This document shows positions 8,181 through 20,476 of a DNA stretch of 32,000 bases, piece by piece (position 1 is the first letter of the stretch; each line of letters starts with the position of its first letter). The notes beneath the pieces are model-generated. The model searched no databases. It saw nothing but the letters and a program-made list of their open reading frames with translations, and was not told the origin of the DNA. Source of the stretch: an uncultured Chloroflexia bacterium (GTDB taxonomy: Bacteria > Chloroflexota > Anaerolineae > Anaerolineales > Anaerolineaceae); NCBI GenBank assembly GCA_963704755.1, contig OY969938.1:4230001-4262000 (forward strand). Reading direction: 5' to 3'. Made by a program: the position numbers and the translations under genes.

Positions 8181-8408
8181 ATGAGGGAAAGGGAATGAGG
8201 GAATAGGAAAGAGTAATGAGGCGATGAGGCAACGAGGCTATAAGGCGATGAGGCAACGAGGCTATAAGGCAATGAGGCAACGAGGCTATAAGGCAATGAG
8301 GCAACGAGGCTATAAGGCAACGAGGCTATAAGGCAATGAGGCAAAGAGGCTATAAGGCAACGAGGCTATAAGGCAATGAGGCAATGAGGCAATAAGGGAA
8401 GAGGAAAA
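8181..8408. repeat. 8-bp-period tandem repeat array (units GCAATGAG / GCAACGAG / GCTATAAG; 24-bp superunit), about 26 units
   Basis: Read directly from the sequence: ...gcgatgag gcaacgag gctataag gcaatgag gcaacgag gctataag.... Lies immediately 5' of the minus-strand gene starting at 8149. Confidence 0.95.
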
Positions 8409-8454: not shown

Positions 8455-8736
8455 TTAGGAGGAGGCAAAAAGCGCTGGTTTTACCAGCCCATTAGGTTGC
8501 AAGTCCGGCGCTTTGCCCTCACCCCCCGGCCCCCAGAACGGGGGAAGGGGAGCTTGATTTTCCTGTTCTCTTATACTATTCACTAATCACTTCTCAATTT
8601 TCGCTTGCCGCATTCGCGAGAATCATATAGTATTTCTTGATAACCCATCAGCCTGATGAGGAAATACCTCATATCGAGAATTTATTGCACAGGCTGGTAC
8701 AGTTTCGTAAGAGGGAATTCATTTCCAGGAGGGGAC

Positions 8737-9471
8737 ATGGGTGCTCGCAACGGCAGAGAAACGCGCGAACAAAACAGCAACAGCTACCGCATCACCGACC
8801 TGGCCGCGGGGGACCGGCCGCGCGAGCGGTTGGCCGAAGTGGGGCCGGGTGCGCTGACCAACGCCGAGCTGCTGGCGATTTTACTGCGGGTGGGGGTGCA
8901 GGGTGAAAACGCGGTCCAATTGGGCCACCGCCTGCTGGCCGAGTTCGGCGGGCTGGCCGGGCTGCACCGGGCTTCGCTGGAGGAGGTCTGCGATCAGCAC
9001 GGGATAGGCATGGCCAAGGCATCCCAAATCAAGGCGGCCATCGAACTGGGCCGGCGCCTGGCGGCCTCCTCGCCGGAAGAGCGGCCGGCTATTCACAATC
9101 CCAAGGACGCAGCCGACCTGGTGATGTACGAGATGATGGCTTTTACCCAGGAAAACCTGTGGGTCATCTTGACCGATACGCGTAACCGGGTGATCTCCAT
9201 CGAGAAGATCTACAAGGGCTCGCTAAATTCGTCGATGGTGCGGGTGGGTGAGCTGTTCAAGGCGGCCGTCCAGCGCAGCGCCGCCTCGATCGTGTTGGTG
9301 CACAATCACCCCAGCGGTGACCCGACCCCCAGCCCGGAAGATGTGGCCCTTACCAGGGCGGCCATCCAGGCCGGCAAGCTCCTCGATGTGGAAGTGCTGG
9401 ACCACCTGGTGATCGGGGCGGGCAAGTTCGTCTCACTGAAAGAGCGCGGGTTGGGGTTTAGCGCCAGTTGA
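8737..9471 (+). CDS. radC: RadC-like JAB/MPN domain protein
   Basis: Track ORF trimmed to the ATG at 8737, preceded by GGAGGGG. Contains RPRERL...[14 protein letters not shown] (HhH-like N-terminus) and the JAMM motif [14 protein letters not shown]. Confidence 0.9.
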
Positions 9472-11171: not shown

Positions 11172-11243
11172 GGCAAGGTAGCTCAGTGGTAGAGCAGGGG
11201 ACTCATAAGCCCTTGGTCGTGGGTTCAACTCCCACCCTTGCCA
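11172..11243 (+). tRNA. tRNA with CAT anticodon (elongator Met, or lysidine-dependent Ile2)
   Basis: Cloverleaf folded by hand:
- acceptor GGCAAGG/CCTTGCC
- D arm GCTC-AGTGGTA-GAGC
- anticodon arm GGGGA-CTCATAA-GCCCT, with an A31-G39 mismatch
- variable loop TGGTC
- T arm GTGGG-TTCAACT-CCCAC
- discriminator A
The G1-C72 pair excludes an initiator. 3' CC is encoded, then T. Confidence 0.85.
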
Positions 11244-11331
11244 CCTGTAAGTTGGTTTTTGGGGGAAAATGAAGGTTGATCCATCCAGTTGCCCGATACG
11301 TACGTGGGGAAGGGTTGATTCGAATAACCTG

Positions 11332-12267
11332 ATGAACCGTACCGAACGCCTGACTGCCATCCTGCTCCTGTTACAGGAGAAGCCGCGCACAGCCGGCGAA
11401 ATCGCGCGCCGGTTCGAGATTTCCCGGCGGACGGTGCTGCGTGACATCCAGGCCCTGAGCGAGATGGGCGTGCCGCTGATCGCCCGCGAAGGCCCGGGTG
11501 GGGGGTATTCGCTGCCGGAATTGTACACCCTCGAGCCGCTGGCGTTGAGCTCCAACGAGGCTTTTCTGCTGCTGCTGGCGTTGAACGGCATCAATCAATT
11601 GGCGGACGCGCCTTTCGCGGACGAGCGCACCAGCCTGGCCGCCAAGCTGCGCGCCCTGCTGCCACCGGCCCAGATCCCGGACCTGGAGAACTTGCTGGAT
11701 AAGGTCGGCCTGCCGGTCCCGCGCCGCGAGCGGCGTTCGCCCTACCTGGACGCACTCGTCCAGGCGCTGCAAGAGGAGCGCTGGGTGTTGATCACCTACC
11801 AGAGCGCCGAGCGGGTCAGCCAGGTGCACATCCGCCCGCGGAATATTTTCAGCCAGTACGGCTACTGGTACTGCCAGGCCTTCATTCACGAGAAGCAGGC
11901 CGAGGGCACCTACCGGGTCGACCGGATCCTGAGCCTGGCGCCGGTCGAGGTGGAGTTTACCGCCGGCCAGTCCGCCGAGCCTTTGCCGTACGATCACCCC
12001 TCACACCCGCAGATCCGCGCCGAGCTGACTCCGCGCGGCGCGATGCTGGTGGAGGTGGAGCCGCACATCGCCGGCAGCCTGCAGCCCAAGCCGGACGGCG
12101 GCGCCTGGCTGGCGCTGCGCTGCCCGCCCTCCGAGCTGGATTATTTCGCCCGTTACTTTGCCGGCTTCGGGAGCGAGATCCGCGTGCTGGCGCCGTCCGA
12201 ACTGCGCGAAAAAATGGGCCATATCGGCCGGTTTCTGGCTAAGAATTATCCGCCTGAAAAACGGTGA
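11332..12267 (+). CDS. HTH-WYL domain transcriptional regulator (YafY/PafBC/BrxR-like architecture)
   Basis: Track ORF trimmed to the ATG at 11332 (MNRTERLTAILLLLQEKPRTAGEIARRFEISRRTVLRDIQAL, an HTH_11-like region). WYL-type core GYWYCQAFIHEKQAEGTYRVDRI and a C-terminal WCX-like extension. Confidence 0.82.
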   Translation: MNRTERLTAILLLLQEKPRTAGEIARRFEISRRTVLRDIQALSEMGVPLIAREGPGGGYSLPELYTLEPLALSSNEAFLLLLALNGINQLADAPFADERTSLAAKLRALLPPAQIPDLENLLDKVGLPVPRRERRSPYLDALVQALQEERWVLITYQSAERVSQVHIRPRNIFSQYGYWYCQAFIHEKQAEGTYRVDRILSLAPVEVEFTAGQSAEPLPYDHPSHPQIRAELTPRGAMLVEVEPHIAGSLQPKPDGGAWLALRCPPSELDYFARYFAGFGSEIRVLAPSELREKMGHIGRFLAKNYPPEKR

Positions 12268-13494: not shown

Positions 13495-13507
13495 GAGATG
13501 ATACTAA

Positions 13508-14092
13508 TTATGCAAGAATCAAGCCAATAACTTGAAAGATGATTCCGAACACTTCCAAGGTACTTTCCAATTCGAACTTTATTTTTAAATAGGTTATCAA
13601 CCTGTAAGGAAGCATCATCATCCAAAAAACTGGAAAAACAAATCCATATATGACCATTTGAATAAATCCAATGAATATAAATGCAATAAAATTTATAAGG
13701 CAAAAAATGACCAATGAAATTGTAAAAATTGTTGAATAAATCGGATTTTTTCCCCAGACAATATATCCTAAAAATAATACAGTAATTACTAAATAGGAAA
13801 TTCTTCCAGTTAAACGAAACCTATCAAGTGAATTTATATATATGTTTGAAGAAAATTCATCGGCTTTTGAGAGAAATTTTGTACCGCGAATTTCCTCTTC
13901 CCAGTTAGTCAACCTTTTTTCTCCAATAATACCTATTCCTGTCAAAATTATTCCGAATATTGTAATGACCTTCCCAATTAAATGCACATTAAGAACAAAT
14001 GGAGGTAGGGCAAAAAAAGGGAAAGATAAAATGCATAAACCACATATTGCAACAAAAGCCAATGAATATAAAAGTTTTTGCGCTTTTTTCAT
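13508..14092 (-). CDS. Multi-pass (about 5-6 TM) membrane protein, unknown function, low-GC
   Basis: 194 aa. Hydrophobic segments LLYSLAFVAICGLCILSFPFFAL, IGKVITIFGIILTGIGIIG, ISYLVITVLFLGYIVWG, a long IFTISLVIFCLINFIAFIFIGFIQMVIYGFVF block and VFGIIFQVIGLILA, plus a charged loop of about 45 aa. No obvious SD. AT-rich codon usage unlike the host. Confidence 0.6.
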   Translation of the reverse strand: MKKAQKLLYSLAFVAICGLCILSFPFFALPPFVLNVHLIGKVITIFGIILTGIGIIGEKRLTNWEEEIRGTKFLSKADEFSSNIYINSLDRFRLTGRISYLVITVLFLGYIVWGKNPIYSTIFTISLVIFCLINFIAFIFIGFIQMVIYGFVFPVFWMMMLPYRLITYLKIKFELESTLEVFGIIFQVIGLILA

Positions 14093-14259
14093 GTTTCACA
14101 AACCATTGTCACGAAAAATTTAATAAATTATAGAACAAATTTTTTCATACAATAACTGTAAATTGGCTATTTAGATTGTATATCAACTTTGTAATTAAAT
14201 ATCGTTTTTCGTTCAATTATTAAATAATTCGTAATAGTGAATGAATTTCTAGTGGTCTG

Positions 14260-14940
14260 TCAAAGATGAATCTCAGGATAGAGGTGTTTAAGCTTGATGC
14301 GGGCATCGGCAGAGGTGAAGCGCCAATCGACCTTGACTAACTGGGCATTGCGGTCGGTTTGCCAGGCTGCCACTTCGCATTCTAAAGTAGCTTTATCAGA
14401 AATACGACGAGAAAGGCACTGGCGGATCAAGACCCCCAACTCAATTTCGGCCATGTCCAGCCAACTGCCATGTTTAGGGGTGTAATGGAATTCGAAGCGA
14501 TTAATAAGCCGTCGCGCTTCATCTGGCTCGAAGGTTTCATAAAAAGAAATCGGCGAGTGCGTGTTCAAGTTGTCCATGACGATCACAATAACCTCGGCTT
14601 GAGGGTAAAGATCATCCGCGAGTTTCCGCATTGCAATGGCCCAATCCCTTCGGGTACGTTGGTCTGTGACTTTGACATATCGCTTGCCTGCCAAAGGTTC
14701 AAAGAACATAAACAAGTCAGCTACTCCCTCTCGGCGATATTCATAGTCTACCCGTTGTGGGTGGCCTGGTTGCATGGAAAGCGGTTCCTGTATATGGGCT
14801 AACAATTGCTTGCTGGTTTCATCCATACACACCTGCGGCCGATTGGGATCATAGGGCCGCGTATAGACTTCCAAAACGTCTTCCATATTGCAGACGAACG
14901 CCGCACTGGCCTGGGGTGGAATGCAGTATTCTTCTTTCAA
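14260..14940 (-). CDS. IS630 transposase, DDE catalytic part (-1 frame)
   Basis: Reading the -1 frame across CAAAAAAAC gives KNELKPWLKEEYCIPP, the typical IS630 junction. Followed by DETS, the VMDNLNTHS (DDE D) and EIE motifs. The track's initial M is a TTG. Confidence 0.8.
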   Translation of the reverse strand: MKEEYCIPPQASAAFVCNMEDVLEVYTRPYDPNRPQVCMDETSKQLLAHIQEPLSMQPGHPQRVDYEYRREGVADLFMFFEPLAGKRYVKVTDQRTRRDWAIAMRKLADDLYPQAEVIVIVMDNLNTHSPISFYETFEPDEARRLINRFEFHYTPKHGSWLDMAEIELGVLIRQCLSRRISDKATLECEVAAWQTDRNAQLVKVDWRFTSADARIKLKHLYPEIHL

Positions 14941-15395
14941 CCAAGGTTTAAGTTCGTTTTTTTGAGCGTGGTGCGAATGGTCTCATGGGAAACGCTCTCG
15001 ACGATCTCCAGTTTTATAAATCGTTCTTGTAAAAGGCGCAGTGTCCAGCGCTCATATCCTTCGGGTACATCACTGCACGCCAGGGCAATCAAATGGGCTT
15101 CAGCATTTCCATCCAGACGATGGGCGTATTCTCGCTCTGGCTTCTTCCGATTGAGAGCTTGCTCTAAACCGCCTTCTGCATATGCCTTGCGAACGGTGGT
15201 AACGGTCACCGAATTTACATCGAGTGCCTTACAAATGGCCTCGTAGGTCCAATTCGGCCCTCCTTCACTACAATCCGATTTGAGTAAAATCCTGGCTCGG
15301 GTTATTTTTCGGGCTGACGCTTCGCCCGATGACATTAATTTTTCAAGGTTCGAACGTTCTTCTGAGCCGAGCTTAACAAAGTATTTTTGGTACAT
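14937..15395 (-). CDS. IS630 transposase, N-terminal HTH part (upstream frame)
   Basis: 152 aa. SGEASARKITRARILLKSD and VTVTTVRKAYAEGG HTH-like segments. Ends ...TLKKTNLNLG* just after an A7 run. Confidence 0.8.
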   Translation of the reverse strand: MYQKYFVKLGSEERSNLEKLMSSGEASARKITRARILLKSDCSEGGPNWTYEAICKALDVNSVTVTTVRKAYAEGGLEQALNRKKPEREYAHRLDGNAEAHLIALACSDVPEGYERWTLRLLQERFIKLEIVESVSHETIRTTLKKTNLNLG

Positions 15396-15723
15396 TTTCT
15401 TGTCCTTGAGTGGGTTTTTCGTTCAAGTTACAAGATTCATGCCTACCTTGAGGTTTAGCTTTGACAAACCACTAGTTTAAAGGAATTAAGCGAATTAGTT
15501 TTTGTTCATGGCTTGCACAAAAGGTTCAGAAAGAAGTTATAGATTGACCCTGAAAATGGAATTATCGAAATAATGAGAAGATGTCTATGAACAATAAAAA
15601 ATAAAAAGATTATTGATCAAAATTGATTTATAATATTGACGAGTGGGAAATAGAAAATTGCGAATTTACGAATACCAAAATGACAAAACTACTATAGTAG
15701 ATTTAGAAAGGTAATGAAGAGAT

Positions 15724-16194
15724 ATGACAACAATTACATTACCTGAAACCCCAAAGAGTTATGAGTTCGAAGAATTCATGTCTGCGTTTTTCCAATCCTC
15801 AATGTATTTTGTTGAGAAAAACCTCATTCTAAAAGAAGAAGAAGAAATTCTTGAACTTGATGCAGTTATTACAGATTATAGGGAAACTCCTCCTATTTTA
15901 CAAATTGTTGAGATGAAATCAGGTGATTGGGGTTTCTCTGATATTTTTAAACTCAAAGGTTGGATGTCTTATTTGAATTTGCCATTTGCAACATTAATTA
16001 CAAAAAAGGAAAGAGAAAACCCCGATTTTTTTGATAGGATTGCTAGAGAGGTTTCAATTAACTTGATTCAAATTTCTGATCTAAACAAAACTCAAAATAT
16101 ACTTTCCACAAAATTCCCAATAGATATAATTGATGAAAATGATACAGAACATTGGAGATTCTCGTATTGGGTAGAACGAATTTTGTTAAAATAG
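15724..16194 (+). CDS. Hypothetical protein with Mrr-cat-like PD-(D/E)xK nuclease motif set
   Basis: 156 aa, low GC. YEFEEFMSAFF helix, then ILELD(46)AVITDY, then PPILQIVE(63)MK(65)SG, then FKLKGWMSYLNLPFATLITKK. This order matches the restriction-endonuclease (Mrr_cat) core FE...D...(E/Q)xK...G...lit. Purine-rich GAAAGG/GAAGAG upstream of the ATG. Confidence 0.6.
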   Translation: MTTITLPETPKSYEFEEFMSAFFQSSMYFVEKNLILKEEEEILELDAVITDYRETPPILQIVEMKSGDWGFSDIFKLKGWMSYLNLPFATLITKKERENPDFFDRIAREVSINLIQISDLNKTQNILSTKFPIDIIDENDTEHWRFSYWVERILLK

Positions 16195-16225
16195 ATTAAA
16201 GGCGAGAAAAAAAAGTATACAAAAT

Positions 16226-17023
16226 ATGAAAGGCTACAAATTTATGGATGAATATTATCAAAGCATTAATAGCGGAATTTTCTTTACGAAAAATATTGGT
16301 GAAAGGGTAAAGACTTTATATGAAGCATTCCAAGAACATCCGCATTTATCGGCTAAATTTGGTCATGAATTAATTGGCGATGATTTTGAGCAAGATCACA
16401 GAATTCTACCTCGAACCATTTTTGAGGAAACCTATTATGATTGCCGGTATACTGATGTTCAAATATCAACTTATATCGAACATAAAGCAAGATTGGCGAT
16501 TTTAAAAAACTTGATTGATTATAAGATTTTTAAAGATATAGGTGATAAAGAAAAGACTGATAAGTATTACAAAATTTTGGGAATAGAAATTTCGATACTC
16601 GATTTCTTACCTTCCTCGTTTTCAATAAGTTTGGATGAAATTTCAGACCATCGTTATTTTCGGAAGTACCCATTTTTTTGGCAATTTTTTTTGTGGGTTT
16701 TTGGGGGATTTATTTTAAATGATTATGAAGAGATGGAATATTCGATTTTATCTGCTAAAACCGGTATACCTGTTAATGAAATACCAAATGCTTTTAAGTT
16801 TTATGAATCACTTTTTCCTATTGAAGGTGGATGGTTAGTTGATTTACCCAACACAAATATCAAAGGCTTAAAAATGTTTTCTGTTCCTTTTCGGGGTATT
16901 GGAGCTAATTATAGAAGAATTCATTATGGAGAAGGGTCCTTTAAAAATTTGCACCTAACAGGATCGCATACTTATGATGACTTAATAAAATGGAATAATC
17001 TGGTAGTCGATGTATTTAAATAG
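16226..17023 (+). CDS. Hypothetical protein, no recognisable domain; central hydrophobic/aromatic segment
   Basis: 265 aa. Starts 31 nt after the previous stop in a different frame. Same low-GC codon usage. Hydrophobic segment YPFFWQFFLWVFGGFIL at aa 149-164. An alternative start at 16244 (MDEYYQ) is possible. Confidence 0.6.
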   Translation: MKGYKFMDEYYQSINSGIFFTKNIGERVKTLYEAFQEHPHLSAKFGHELIGDDFEQDHRILPRTIFEETYYDCRYTDVQISTYIEHKARLAILKNLIDYKIFKDIGDKEKTDKYYKILGIEISILDFLPSSFSISLDEISDHRYFRKYPFFWQFFLWVFGGFILNDYEEMEYSILSAKTGIPVNEIPNAFKFYESLFPIEGGWLVDLPNTNIKGLKMFSVPFRGIGANYRRIHYGEGSFKNLHLTGSHTYDDLIKWNNLVVDVFK

Positions 17024-17188
17024 CGAAAACAAATCCCTTGAAAAATGATTTGAACTTAAAGTTTTTCTCCTATTTGGACCAATTAAATTGTTTTACAATA
17101 TAAATTCACCTCGTACACAAGGTGTCTTGAAAACATCTCTATGTTCATTCTAATTTTCTAAATCAAAGATGCTTATGTATGCTTGTCG

Positions 17189-17230
17189 CGAGATTGACTG
17201 TCCAAAAGCAAGCCTCGCAACGACATTAAT
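17189..17230. repeat. Dispersed repeat, family B (copy 1)
   Basis: GAGATTG...CAAAAG...CCTCGCAACGACATTAAT. The last 18 nt (17213-17230) are identical to 27524-27541. Marks the AT-rich to GC-rich transition, 11 nt from the stop of the 17241..17963 gene. Confidence 0.8.
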
Positions 17231-17240
17231 GTGAGCCCGG

Positions 17241-17963
17241 CTAAGCCCGGCTGATGGCTATGGCGCCGGCGTTGCCGGACATGAAATAATTCAGGGCGGC
17301 GGCGGTGACCTGGTTGGAGGTGCTGCGGGCGGGGTCGTTGATGGTGAAGAGGCCGGTGGCGGCGTTGTAGGAGCTCACTTCGATGATGTGGGCGGTGGCG
17401 TTGCCGGGCGCAGATTGGTCGTCCGAGCCGCGGTCGCCGGTCCAGGGCGGGGGATATTTGCCGGCAAAGGTGCCGCTGGCGATCACGCTGGCGCCCCGGC
17501 CCAGCGCCTGGATGATGCTGGTCGAGTTGGCGCCAATCGCGCTGCTGGATGCGCCTGCCGCGGCGGCTCCGCGGGCCAGGTCGCTGAAATCGGTGTAGGT
17601 GTTGTGTTCGGCATCCGAGCGGCGCCCACTGGAGTCGACGCCGTCTTTGGCGCTGCTGTTGGCCATCGAGAGGCGCGCCAGGTCCACCGCTTCGCCGTCG
17701 TTGCTGCCGGCGGTCTCACCGGCCACGCCCAGGCCTAACTGGTGCAAGGCCATCACCAGCGAAGTCGGACCGCAGTCCGCGTTGCTGCCGTCGCCGCCCA
17801 CCTGGAGTTCGGCGTCGAACTGGTTGATGTGGGTGGTTTTTTTGGCGTTCAAAACGTTGGCAGCGCCGAACGAGGAAGTAGAGGCCCCATCCGGGCCGGA
17901 CTGATAATCACTGACCACCTGCTGGGAAAGCAGTTGTTCGCCCACCGAGGCGAGCAGGGGCAT
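17241..17963 (-). CDS. C39-like / papain-fold cysteine peptidase domain protein
   Basis: 240 aa, GC-rich. Candidate catalytic Cys context NADCGPTSLVMALHQLG and downstream His context TAHIIEVSSYN, followed by NDP. Ala/Gly/Ser-rich linker. No signal peptide at this start. Confidence 0.55.
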   Translation of the reverse strand: MPLLASVGEQLLSQQVVSDYQSGPDGASTSSFGAANVLNAKKTTHINQFDAELQVGGDGSNADCGPTSLVMALHQLGLGVAGETAGSNDGEAVDLARLSMANSSAKDGVDSSGRRSDAEHNTYTDFSDLARGAAAAGASSSAIGANSTSIIQALGRGASVIASGTFAGKYPPPWTGDRGSDDQSAPGNATAHIIEVSSYNAATGLFTINDPARSTSNQVTAAALNYFMSGNAGAIAISRA

Positions 17964-18209: not shown

Positions 18210-18383
18210 GCGGATGAGGGAAGAGGCAAAAAGGCAATGAGGCAAAAAGGCAAAAAGGCAATGAGGCAAAAAGGCAATGAGGCAATGAGGCAATGAGGCA
18301 AAAAGGCAACGAGGCAATATGGTAAAGCCAGCTTTCCTCGTTGCCTCATTGCCTCATTACTCATTACCTCATTACTCATTACT
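18210..18383. repeat. Second 8-bp-period array of the same family (GCAATGAG / GCAAAAAG / GCAACGAG), followed by inverted units (CTCGTTGC CTCATTGC CTCATTAC...)
   Basis: Read directly from the sequence. About 13 forward units, a spacer of about 15 nt (gtaaagccagctttc), then 5-6 reverse-complement or degenerate units. This gives a large imperfect palindrome. Confidence 0.95.
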
Positions 18384-18426
18384 TATCCCTAATCTCCATT
18401 CTCCTCGCCAGAATGATTTTACATAA

Positions 18427-18456
18427 TTGACAAATATGGTTATACTTCAATAAATA
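18427..18456 (+). promoter_or_regulatory. Possible sigma-70 promoter upstream of the small ORF
   Basis: TTGACA (18427-18432), then ATAAAT at 17 nt or TAAATA at 18 nt. About 140 nt upstream of the ATG at 18596. Confidence 0.3.
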
Positions 18457-18595
18457 ATTTGTTAGAGCTTTTGTTGTTTCTAAATATTTTGTTGACCATT
18501 CAGATAGGTTCGCAGGTACTATAACTTCAAAAGGAGGTGGAAAACCTCCCGGCTGTTCGTCTCTCGAATTAGAAATGGAAATTTAAAGGAGGATT

Positions 18596-18802
18596 ATGTT
18601 GGAAAAAGGGATTTATAAAATAAATCATCCCGGCGATCCGTTGCACGATGACCGTGTTGTGATCAGAGAAGCCAGCAAGAAATATGGCTATTTTTTTGAC
18701 AAAAATGGAAAATACAGGGCCTATTTGTGGGAGTACCTTGTTTTAGTACAGGCCGGTTCCAAAGCCAGAAAAAATATCGAAGTCGACTACGTCAGCAAAT
18801 AA
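18596..18802 (+). CDS. Small hypothetical protein (68 aa), low-GC
   Basis: Strong SD (AAAGGAGGATT) directly before the ATG. Followed by a hairpin and T7 tract. No domain recognised. Confidence 0.5.
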   Translation: MLEKGIYKINHPGDPLHDDRVVIREASKKYGYFFDKNGKYRAYLWEYLVLVQAGSKARKNIEVDYVSK

Positions 18803-18838
18803 TTTTTTGGCGGTTCAAAATATACCATCGAAAAATAC

Positions 18839-18901
18839 CCCGAAGTTTAGGTGTTCAGGAGGCCCCCAACCCCCAAACACCTGATTTCGGGAACTTTTTT
18901 C
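18839..18901 (+). terminator. Candidate Rho-independent terminator
   Basis: CCCGAAGTTTAGGTGTT ... AACACCTGATTTCGGG (6 + 7 bp stem with an internal loop and a large C-rich loop), followed by aacTTTTTTT. Confidence 0.4.
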
Positions 18902-19072
18902 GCAAACCGGTTCTTCGCTCCACCATTCCTTTACTCATATAGAGGTTCTTTGGGAATTACCGGGATAGTTTGTATCTATGAGGTTATTCGTGCGCTTCGT
19001 GCACAAATAACCCCATAGATAACTTCTTCCACGGTAGATCCCAGTGACCTTTCCCCGGTTTAGTAGACATAG

Positions 19073-19930
19073 TTAAAGGGTGAGGTTTTCGAAATCAACG
19101 GGGCTGAGGTAGCCCAAAGTAGAGTGTAGTCGTTGGCGATTGTACCAAACCTCCAGGTATTCAAAAATGGTCGTGCGAGCCAAGGTACGGGTAAGAAATG
19201 GACCCGTAACGCATTCGGTTTTCAGAGTGCCAAAGAAACTCTCCATGACCGCATTGTCGTAACAGTTGCCAGCCCCGCTCATACTCAGTTGGGCCAGAGC
19301 TTCGGTCAAGCAGGAGCGGTAGGCAGCGCTGGTGTACTGGCTGCCCTGATCGGAGTGGTGCAGCAGGCCAGCCGGTGGATGACGTCCCAGGAGGGCCATA
19401 CGCAAAGCTGTTTCTACCAAGGCGGTGTCCATCTTCTGGCTCATCGACCACCCAATCACTTTGCGGGAGAACAAGTCCAAGACCACGGCCAGATACAACC
19501 AGCCTTCTCCGGTCTCGATGTAGGTAAAATCACTGACCCATTTCTGGTTGGGGGCAGAGGCGGAGAAGTCCTGGTTCAGCCGGTTGGGGGCAGGAATCGC
19601 CCCTGGCTGGCGGTGGGTGGTCACTGGACGGTACTTGCGCCTTGCAAGGGCTGCGATCCCATGCAAACGCATCAGGCGTGCCACCCGATTATGCCCACAC
19701 ACTACCCCTTTTCGCCGCAGAACCACGTACACACGCGGGCTGCCATATGTTTTCCGGCTGCGCTCATGCTCTGCTGTAATCAGCTCCAGCAGAGCCTGGT
19801 TGGCTTGTTCCCGCGTGCTGGGCGTTCGTTTCCGCCAGGCGTAATACCCACTGCGCTTCACACTCAGCATCCGGCACATCCGCTTGATCTGAAATTGCTC
19901 TTCGTGGGCAGCCATAAACGTGTACTTCAT
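19073..19930 (-). CDS. IS3 transposase OrfB (DDE integrase core), expressed as an OrfAB fusion by -1 frameshift
   Basis: 285 aa. rve-type motifs (WVSDFTYI, HSDQGSQYTS, YDNAVMESFFGTLKTE). -1 frame relative to orfA. Slippery A7 at 19960-19966. Confidence 0.9.
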   Translation of the reverse strand: MKYTFMAAHEEQFQIKRMCRMLSVKRSGYYAWRKRTPSTREQANQALLELITAEHERSRKTYGSPRVYVVLRRKGVVCGHNRVARLMRLHGIAALARRKYRPVTTHRQPGAIPAPNRLNQDFSASAPNQKWVSDFTYIETGEGWLYLAVVLDLFSRKVIGWSMSQKMDTALVETALRMALLGRHPPAGLLHHSDQGSQYTSAAYRSCLTEALAQLSMSGAGNCYDNAVMESFFGTLKTECVTGPFLTRTLARTTIFEYLEVWYNRQRLHSTLGYLSPVDFENLTL

Positions 19931-20235
19931 CCGCCTTTCCGGGAGAAAATGTTGACTACTTTTTTTAGGATCTCTCGCTCTTCGGCTATCTCCTTCAGCT
20001 CCCGTTGCAAACGCACAATCTCCCTTTTGGCCGCTTCTAAATCACTCGGTACCAGCTTCGGCTCCTGGTTCTCTGGCAACACCACCTCGTATCGATCCCG
20101 CCACTTTAGCAACATCCCTGGCGTTATCCCCAGTTCCCGCTCAAGCTGTCCTGCACTCTTCCCGCTGCTTTTCAGCAGCTCTAACGCTTCCCGCTTGAAC
20201 TCATCGGTGTATTCTCGATATTTCTTGTCACTCAT
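19927..20235 (-). CDS. IS3 transposase OrfA (HTH)
   Basis: ATG at 20235 preceded by GGAGGAAGG. MSDKKYREYTDEFKREALELL...GITPGMLLKWRDRY, then a leucine-zipper-like region and ...EILKKVVNIFSRKGG*. Confidence 0.9.
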   Translation of the reverse strand: MSDKKYREYTDEFKREALELLKSSGKSAGQLERELGITPGMLLKWRDRYEVVLPENQEPKLVPSDLEAAKREIVRLQRELKEIAEEREILKKVVNIFSRKGG

Positions 20236-20476
20236 GACCTTCCTCCGTTCCCTTTTACTGTACATCTCTCACCCTTCATTCGTGTCTACTGATTCGGGGA
20301 AAGGTCACAGAGACCCCATATAGAATACCAAATCCACCAAAAATGTGTGGATATAATAGATGTTGTTTGCATTTTCCGGCAATCCTGAATATTTGGGCTG
20401 AATTGCCGGATTTTGCGACTCTTTTTCCGCCACAGTGCGTTTGAATTTATGAGAACAGCACAAAGGGCCATGCGTA

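Follow-up and report, generated by a model that had tools for sequence, protein, structure and literature searches.

Do two neighbouring AT-rich open reading frames (ORFs) from an uncultured Chloroflexia bacterium encode two cooperating proteins, or are they the remains of one gene? The question is raised by positions 15724-17023 of the 32,000-nt stretch of DNA analysed here (contig OY969938.1, positions 4,230,001 to 4,262,000; hereafter, the window), which a preliminary description had presented as two co-oriented genes of a candidate undescribed defence module, a small nuclease being paired with a separate sensor or specificity subunit. We propose that this segment is most probably one frameshifted, horizontally acquired gene for a single-polypeptide Mrr_cat-type endonuclease of about 432 amino acids (aa) with a helical C-terminal domain. 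The features with which the argument begins are the following.

15724-16194, plus strand: ORF1, 156 aa
16226-17023, plus strand: ORF2, 265 aa, in a frame that differs from that of ORF1 and after a gap of 31 nt
15724-17023, plus strand: proposed single nuclease gene (~432 aa), interrupted by a +1-nt frameshift, from tblastn and frame repair
16189-16195, plus strand: frameshift site AAA-T-AGA, in which the extra T16192 makes TAG and moves the frame by +1

Two reading frames, one gene

Both ORFs lie at the positions, and at the distance from each other, that had been described, but the long homologues, the tblastn alignments and the effect of removing T16192 indicate that they are halves of one frameshifted gene and not two genes. 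When ORF1 was the query, only five proteins were matched (102-186 aa). ORF2 retrieved 194 homologues in a word-indexed search, and nearly all of the 120 listed were 420-460 aa long and spanned the entire ORF2. The first ~165 residues of these long relatives align with ORF1, with which they have in common the motifs LPxLPKGKEFEEY, ELD, EVKSGxWGFxDLFK and WRFSYWVER. At its C-terminal end, ORF1 runs ...WRFSYWVERILLK (reading WVERILLK), and the ORF2 frame, which is open from 16190, reads RLKARKKSIQNMKGYKFMDEYY before and through its ATG; the relatives read WVERNLLKRLNHKKKSHPxKKCFxALExYY across the junction stretch. In tblastn, the full-length relative P0007 was placed with residues 1-166 at 15724-16218 and with residues 158-433 at 16193-17020 in the next frame, the two halves overlapping at residues 158-166. 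In fact, removing T16192 (TTGTTAAAA-T-AGATTAAAG) yields a 432-aa ORF whose junction aligns without a gap.

This frame-corrected protein retains 40 of 40 invariant and 68 of 75 near-invariant family residues (94%, against 80-91% in the least conserved intact members listed). Given that the invariant residues are all intact, the lesion should be either very recent or a base-calling error; the window copy would thus be a recent pseudogene or a misread gene, and it is probably dead.

The relatives point the same way. A profile search that was exhaustive over 1.84 billion representatives, clustered at 50% identity, returned 604 clusters at E<=1e-3 and 284 at E<=1e-30. Among the best 150 of the 604 cluster representatives, nearly every one is a protein of 425-460 aa that is aligned over profile positions 3-437, and the ends of the shorter entries are scattered, with no recurrent break at the window's position. 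The preliminary description had suggested asking whether homologues of the two ORFs co-occur; what was found is that they are fused in single proteins of 425-460 aa and do not stand as adjacent separate genes, so that no two-gene architecture was seen in the relatives. Likewise, in place of a small nuclease with a separate sensor subunit, the 604 clusters present one polypeptide with a long helix as the joint.

A few relatives are broken, each in its own manner. The metagenomic locus L001 reads as 162 + 258 aa owing to an in-frame TAA in place of a Lys codon (HKK*SLKNKK), and in L003 the short ORF1-type match is cut off by an insertion sequence (IS) carrying a DDE_5 transposase gene. Two loci from the unbiased genomic set are also damaged: a TAA interrupts the WVER motif in L029, and in L055 the frame is shifted ahead of that motif. 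Two further short ORF1-type matches are truncated on contigs of ~1 kb. As the lesions of L001, L029 and L055 affect different codons, they are independent and do not represent an inherited split.

Comparison of these sequences thus leads us to read ORF1 and ORF2 as two parts of a single gene whose frame changes at 16192, where one nucleotide has been inserted. Slippage at a homopolymer, as a source of phase variation, was considered and rejected, because the lesion is a T put into an A run and not a change in run length. On this evidence, the annotation of the window locus should be marked as a frameshifted pseudogene, and we would not count a two-component system here.

The predicted N-terminal nuclease domain

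The part of the proposed protein that corresponds to most of ORF1 carries the predicted nuclease.

15724-16128, plus strand: PD-(D/E)xK (Mrr_cat-like) nuclease domain, predicted from invariant motifs, the relatives' Mrr_cat scores, the model and Foldseek
E16; D46 (15859-15861); E63 (15910-15912); K65 (15916-15918), plus strand: catalytic candidates, from invariant columns

ORF1 had been described as an Mrr_cat-type nuclease with D46 and E63-x-K65, and this prediction gains support from the invariance of the columns, from relatives that pass the Mrr_cat threshold and from the fold of the model. E16, D46, E63 and K65 are invariant in 40 relatives (E16, D47, E64 and K66 in P0007 numbering). The AlphaFold2 model is one of the relative P0007, built from the 40-sequence alignment, and not of the window protein; it reached a predicted local distance difference test score (pLDDT) of 92.1 and a predicted template modelling score (pTM) of 0.92. 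Residues 1-135 of this model form an alpha-beta-beta-beta-alpha-beta core, with E16 on the first helix (13-25), D47 on strand 2 (43-52) and E64/K66 on strand 3 (59-66). Three relatives (P0059, P0067 and P0118) score 25.6-28.9 bits against Mrr_cat (PF04471), for which the gathering cut-off is 21, over profile positions 2-111 of 115, and Mrr_cat is found at E<=0.01 in 7 of the 40 members.

Foldseek comparison of the P0007 model with the PDB returned EcoT38I, AF1548, VC1899, Can2 and MspJI at probabilities of 0.94-1.0 over 133-161 columns, with E values of only ~1e-2 to 2e-1. These nuclease matches vanish when the C-terminal part alone is the query, and therefore they belong to the N-terminal domain. 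A PDB sequence search with the family profile gave a polyhedrin as its sole match (E 0.25), which is spurious. Motifs, profile scores and model together point to a PD-(D/E)xK nuclease domain of the Mrr_cat type, in which the putative catalytic motif is invariant.

The connecting helix and the C-terminal domain

In the P0007 model, residues 139-165 form a linking helix of 27 residues (block pLDDT 88-96) that comprises WRFSYWVER and a Lys-rich stretch and runs into the C-terminal domain. The frameshift of the window falls in the middle of this helix, and a translational restart at 16226 would lose ~12 of its residues, equivalent to 158-169.

16193-17020, plus strand: C-terminal domain, ~270-275 aa, mainly helical in a model from the window sequence

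The model of this domain, made from the window sequence, has a pLDDT of 91.4 and is mainly helical, with two small hairpins. The conserved motifs of the domain are SAKCGNE, IEHRARLAILKNAIDY, YPxFWQWFxWxFGGFIL and PVPFxGIGANYRR, and the window copy has kept all 27 invariant columns. That ORF2 has no assignable motif, as had been noted, agrees with the absence of any match to Pfam, NCBIfam, PADLOC or PHROG. Structure searches of both parts, which had also been suggested, were fruitful for the N-terminal domain, with its Foldseek matches to nucleases, but not for the C-terminal domain, for which the best matches had E values of 1.6 (PDB) and 1.9 (BFVD) and no structural neighbour emerged. With this model, neither a CARF nor a SAVED structure rose above noise, the only related entry being Csm6 (E 3.4, probability 0.03). 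From the model, the C-terminal domain apparently has a new fold. The segment YPFFWQFFLWVFGGFIL was considered as a membrane span or anchor and rejected, since its maximum 19-residue hydropathy of 1.39 is below the transmembrane level; it is a confidently modelled element of the globular domain.

Spread and mobility of the family

The gene is present in 54 loci of GTDB species representatives. The bacterial hosts include Zixibacteria, Hydrogenedentes, Caldisericales, Patescibacteria, Acidobacteriota, Verrucomicrobia, Chloroflexi, Bacteroidota (Dyadobacter, Chitinophaga), Myxococcota, about 14 Streptomyces and Mariprofundus, and the archaeal hosts include Methanobacteriota, Methanosarcinales and Thermococcaceae. 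Intact copies occur in cultured strains, for instance Dyadobacter linearis CECT 9623, Dyadobacter luticola T17, Chitinophaga silvisoli, several Streptomyces and Minicystis rosea DSM 24000. The proteins of a Hodarchaeales and a Bacteroidia metagenome-assembled genome (MAG) are 80% identical, a figure to be read with the caveat of MAG binning error.

In 51 of the 54 loci, the G+C content of the family gene is below that of its flanks, often by 0.15-0.20. Across phyla, nucleotide similarity stops ~40 nt upstream and ~30 nt downstream of the ORF, which indicates that little more than the gene itself is transferred. About 10 of the 54 genomic copies appear disrupted or partial. A phage origin was considered and rejected, given that there is one relative in 2.9 million viral contigs and no PHROG match. 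These comparisons indicate that the family has spread horizontally and patchily and has left many damaged copies.

Genomic neighbourhoods of the relatives

A conserved partner gene was sought by all-against-all BLAST of the ORFs within 7 kb and rejected, since only clade-specific synteny and transposases were found. Among 128 flanking genes at 34 diverse loci, 3-5 match DNA methyltransferase models, each belonging to a type I restriction-modification (R-M) system of its own, and 3-4 are Schlafen/AlbA_2-HATPase_c_4 proteins; some are IS66 or rve transposases, and the rest are miscellaneous. The flanking genes that were examined include none for CRISPR or cyclic-oligonucleotide systems.

Individual loci give an impression of this variety. 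In L059 (6838-10375), the family gene stands alone between two ornithine/aspartate carbamoyltransferase (OTCase) paralogues, and in L060 it lies between ispG and an uncharacterised gene, amid tRNA synthetases; both are bare-ORF insertions into housekeeping neighbourhoods. In methanogens (L005, L008 and L015), it is located between an AP endonuclease and an Fe-ADH gene. L061 (3179-12412) and L062 present an island with an integrase, an excisionase (HTH_17) and an HTH_3 gene, where the neighbours of the family gene encode a 628-aa EMARD_N protein and an unannotated 950-aa protein, and which may be a defence-type island. In a Streptomyces sub-clade (L034, 391-2835; L035; L037; L038), a gene for an ~800-aa ResIII/DEAD helicase with four HA domains is found ~100-400 nt upstream on the same strand, and in L040 the gap between the helicase gene and the family gene is ~1.6 kb; this arrangement could be a clade-specific helicase-nuclease pair.

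Comparison with known nucleases and defence systems

The closest parallel in catalytic fold and in the D...ExK motif is Mrr and the Mrr_cat (PF04471) type IV enzymes, whose Pfam threshold is passed by the three members named above. Like the family gene, Mrr is solitary, with no cognate methyltransferase. Mrr differs in that its N-terminal domain is a winged-helix DNA-binding domain, whereas the nuclease of the family is itself N-terminal, so that the order is reversed; moreover, the partner domain of the family is unrelated to anything in Pfam or the PDB, and the window copy is below the Mrr_cat threshold.

EcoT38I (7e8r/7edb) and MspJI (4f0p) are among the best structural matches of the nuclease domain, at probabilities of 0.94-1.0 over 144-160 columns, but with E values of only ~1e-2 to 2e-1 and 12-16% identity, and their recognition domains have no counterpart in the family. 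The nuclease domains of Can2/Card1/VC1899 (7bdv, 8bao, 1xmx) superpose best, with a root-mean-square deviation of 3.2-4.9 A over 133-141 columns. These proteins also resemble the family in their one-polypeptide logic, a regulatory or sensor domain being joined to a PD-(D/E)xK effector; in contrast to them, the family has no CARF domain.

Shedu, a single-protein immune nuclease with variable sensor domains, is described as a stand-alone PD-(D/E)xK nuclease fused to a separate regulatory domain (10.1101/2023.08.10.552793). The family may follow the same concept, as a functional analogy only. No Shedu model appears among the weak PADLOC matches of the family or of the window ORFs.

With PADLOC-DB v2, neither ORF of the window is matched at E<=1, an outcome that the preliminary description had named as fitting its claim, and the 40 relatives give scattered weak matches only, of which the best is PDC-S02 (1.7e-4, in 2 members). 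No cognate methyltransferase of the kind that defines classical type I-III R-M systems was found between 8.6 and 23 kb of the window or at the 34 relative loci. A literature search on Mrr_cat nucleases in defence yielded nothing on the architecture of the family. Since neither part matches PADLOC or NCBIfam and the C-terminal part has no Pfam family, the label "undescribed" given to the locus holds. In our view, the family is uncharacterised and varies the known theme of the solitary PD-(D/E)xK nuclease by a novel partner domain.

A probable decaying foreign gene and the alternatives

How could the window have come to look as it does? The gene would have come by horizontal transfer on a 2.5-kb AT-rich islet, which an IS630 element would have entered later, and the extra T16192 would shift the frame in mid-helix, leaving the 156-aa and 265-aa ORFs. 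Where the gene is intact, in the relatives, its product is probably a DNA endonuclease that works without a partner, and the C-terminal domain may provide target recognition or restrain the nuclease, as in type IV-like enzymes or single-protein immune nucleases. In the window copy, nuclease activity is most likely lost. The window locus itself is ordinary, a decaying foreign gene beside an IS, and the modest lead lies in the family, a large group of solitary Mrr_cat-type nucleases that occurs in both Bacteria and Archaea and moves horizontally. If the family restricts phage or plasmids, it would be a new single-gene system with a new recognition fold.

Several observations weigh against this account. 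Neither ORF1 of the window nor the frame-corrected 432-aa protein has an Mrr_cat match at E<=1, and the nuclease assignment of the window copy is carried over from homologous members, the invariant motifs and the model of a relative. For every member of the family, nuclease activity is a prediction from sequence and models, and any target or phenotype is hypothetical. A true mutation and an assembly error are indistinguishable from the assembled sequence alone, and both fragments could in principle still be made and associate. Lastly, many relatives are placed between plain housekeeping genes and a minority adjoin recognisable defence genes, so a defence role is not established.

Such a role is nevertheless plausible for the family, and the compositional mismatch, the cross-domain transfer, the frequent inactivation and the occasional island context are compatible with it; the housekeeping neighbourhoods and the bare-ORF mobility equally allow a selfish or other role. 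A more ambitious proposal, which we put forward tentatively, is that the intact family is an undescribed single-protein immune or selfish endonuclease whose C-terminal new fold senses or selects the target, and that a naked ORF of ~1.4 kb hops between Bacteria and Archaea, the window copy being freshly inactivated. The hopping is proposed because of the identity between the Hodarchaeales and Bacteroidia MAG proteins.

The alternative that survives best, which is possible even if we would not bet on it, is that the family has no immune function at all and consists of solitary nucleases that are selfish or serve some other non-defensive end, such as free-standing mobile endonucleases or enzymes of DNA processing. 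Its movement as a bare ORF, with similarity ending ~30-40 nt past the ORF, would suit such an element, as would the single copies between housekeeping genes in several genomes, the missing conserved partner or methyltransferase and the missing PADLOC match. However, the loci have no insertion target in common, and some copies reside in islands with integrase, R-M or Schlafen genes. Defence genes, too, are typically patchy in distribution, often inactivated and at odds with their host in composition, and the family is present on only 1 of the 2.9 million viral contigs.

Returning to the window copy, which we read as a gene broken by a real insertion, a somewhat less probable alternative is that the extra T16192 was introduced in error, during assembly or base calling, in a low-complexity AT-rich region, in which case the gene would be intact and the full 432-aa nuclease made. 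The complete retention of the 40 invariant residues, the 94% of near-invariant residues kept and the lack of a second lesion are what one would expect of an intact gene. The source contig, at 4.87 Mb, is long enough to suggest assembly from long reads, in which single-base indels are a common fault, and the site is within the A-rich stretch TTAAAATAGATTAAA. Nevertheless, the extra base is a T inside an A run and not a change in homopolymer length. The apparently disrupted or partial state of about a fifth of the genomic copies elsewhere (the ~10 of 54 mentioned above) means that loss of the family gene is common, and the IS630 element already present 250 nt upstream fits a decaying islet.

It is very improbable, in our judgement, that ORF1 and ORF2 arose by gene fission and form a working two-component module of a small nuclease and a separate sensor or specificity subunit. 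Every invariant residue is kept in both halves, and the ATG codons at 16226 and 16244 could restart translation, the public annotation in fact having a 259-aa protein from 16244 (P0006); the metagenomic relative L001 is likewise divided into 162 + 258 aa. Yet the break is inside the 27-residue helix that links the domains, and a restart at 16226 deletes the equivalents of 158-169. Moreover, the splits of L001, L029 and L055 are unrelated lesions at other positions, the best 150 of the 604 cluster representatives hold no clean pairs of N-only and C-only proteins at the window's position, and ORF1 as read in the window is absent from the protein collection. Least probable of all is programmed +1 ribosomal frameshifting at AAA-TAG-A, where a slowly decoded A-site stop would yield a regulated full-length nuclease, as in prfB: although the zero-frame stop is exactly at the shift point and the +1 frame is then in perfect register with the family, the shift is in no relative examined, intact relatives use a single frame, no Shine-Dalgarno-like stimulator is visible just upstream, and a T before AGA yields TAG automatically.

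The AT-rich islet and neighbouring features

If the nuclease gene was acquired horizontally, its surroundings should be considered as well.

13498-17229, no strand: low-GC islet, ~2.5 kb without the IS, with sharp G+C steps at both ends
13508-14092, minus strand: 194-aa ORF with ~5 hydrophobic spans by hydropathy
14252-15472, minus strand: IS630-family element with a DDE_3 ORF and an HTH_32/HTH_29 ORF, inside the islet and 250 nt upstream of the nuclease gene
11172-11245, plus strand: tRNA-Met, context only
11269-12267, plus strand: HTH-WYL-WCX regulator, context only
19073-20265, minus strand: IS3-family element with an HTH_Tnp_1 orfA and an rve orfB, context only

In 300-nt windows, the G+C content is 0.28-0.33 over 15601-17100 and 0.27-0.35 over 13501-14400, and at 40-nt resolution it changes from 0.60 to 0.30 at 13500 and from 0.45 to 0.70 at 17230. 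The low G+C content of the two ORFs had thus been described correctly, but the DNA around the islet ranges from 0.55 to 0.72 and is not uniformly at 70%. The low-GC cassette also proved to be larger than the two ORFs, as it is part of a 2.5-kb islet that is interrupted by the IS630 element and whose content amounts to two divergent genes, the 194-aa membrane ORF on the minus strand and the ORF1/ORF2 region. The 194-aa ORF has no Pfam, NCBIfam or PHROG match and no homologue beside the family gene in the family loci compared.

The foreign origin of this DNA and its position among mobile elements, which had been proposed, are borne out by the G+C contrast and by the IS630 and IS3 elements, and the IS630 copy upstream, the tRNA and the WYL regulator were all found as reported. 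Between 8.6 and 23 kb of the window, the larger ORFs include no methyltransferase, helicase or ATPase, again as reported. The tRNA-Met was considered as an integration site and rejected, since no repeat of at least 14 nt of the tRNA or its 3' end exists elsewhere in the window. A second gene copy in the window, suggested by a 21-nt inverted match between 15915-15935 and 18868-18888, was also rejected: tblastn with five relatives finds nothing at the latter position, and therefore the match is due to chance.

The IS630 element has a G+C content of 0.50, terminal inverted repeats GTGGTyTGTCAAAG and a TA flanking both ends; it has no plasmid match. Its HTH and DDE_3 ORFs overlap near 14937-14962, just downstream of an A7 run (minus strand CTCAAAAAAACG) at which, read by eye from the sequence, the -1 frame is open throughout. 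The overlap looks like a programmed -1 frameshift that would yield a fused transposase.

The right end of the islet is abutted by a Peptidase_C39_2-like ORF (17241-17963, minus strand, 240 aa, G+C ~0.67). Further downstream, past an octamer array, the stretch 18301-19070 has a lower G+C content (0.36-0.46) and reaches as far as the IS3 element. There are two such arrays, at 8190-8404 and 18221-18383, which are 10 kb apart and have a common 8-nt unit, AGGCAATG / AGGCAAAA / AGGCAACG. Both lie within strongly purine-skewed, apparently non-coding stretches, and the array at 18221-18383 is directly followed by its own inverted complement (18336-18383), giving a long imperfect hairpin. Just downstream of the first array, 8656-9471 encodes a RadC-like JAB-domain protein (UPF0758_N + RadC), and RadC genes are frequent on mobile elements.

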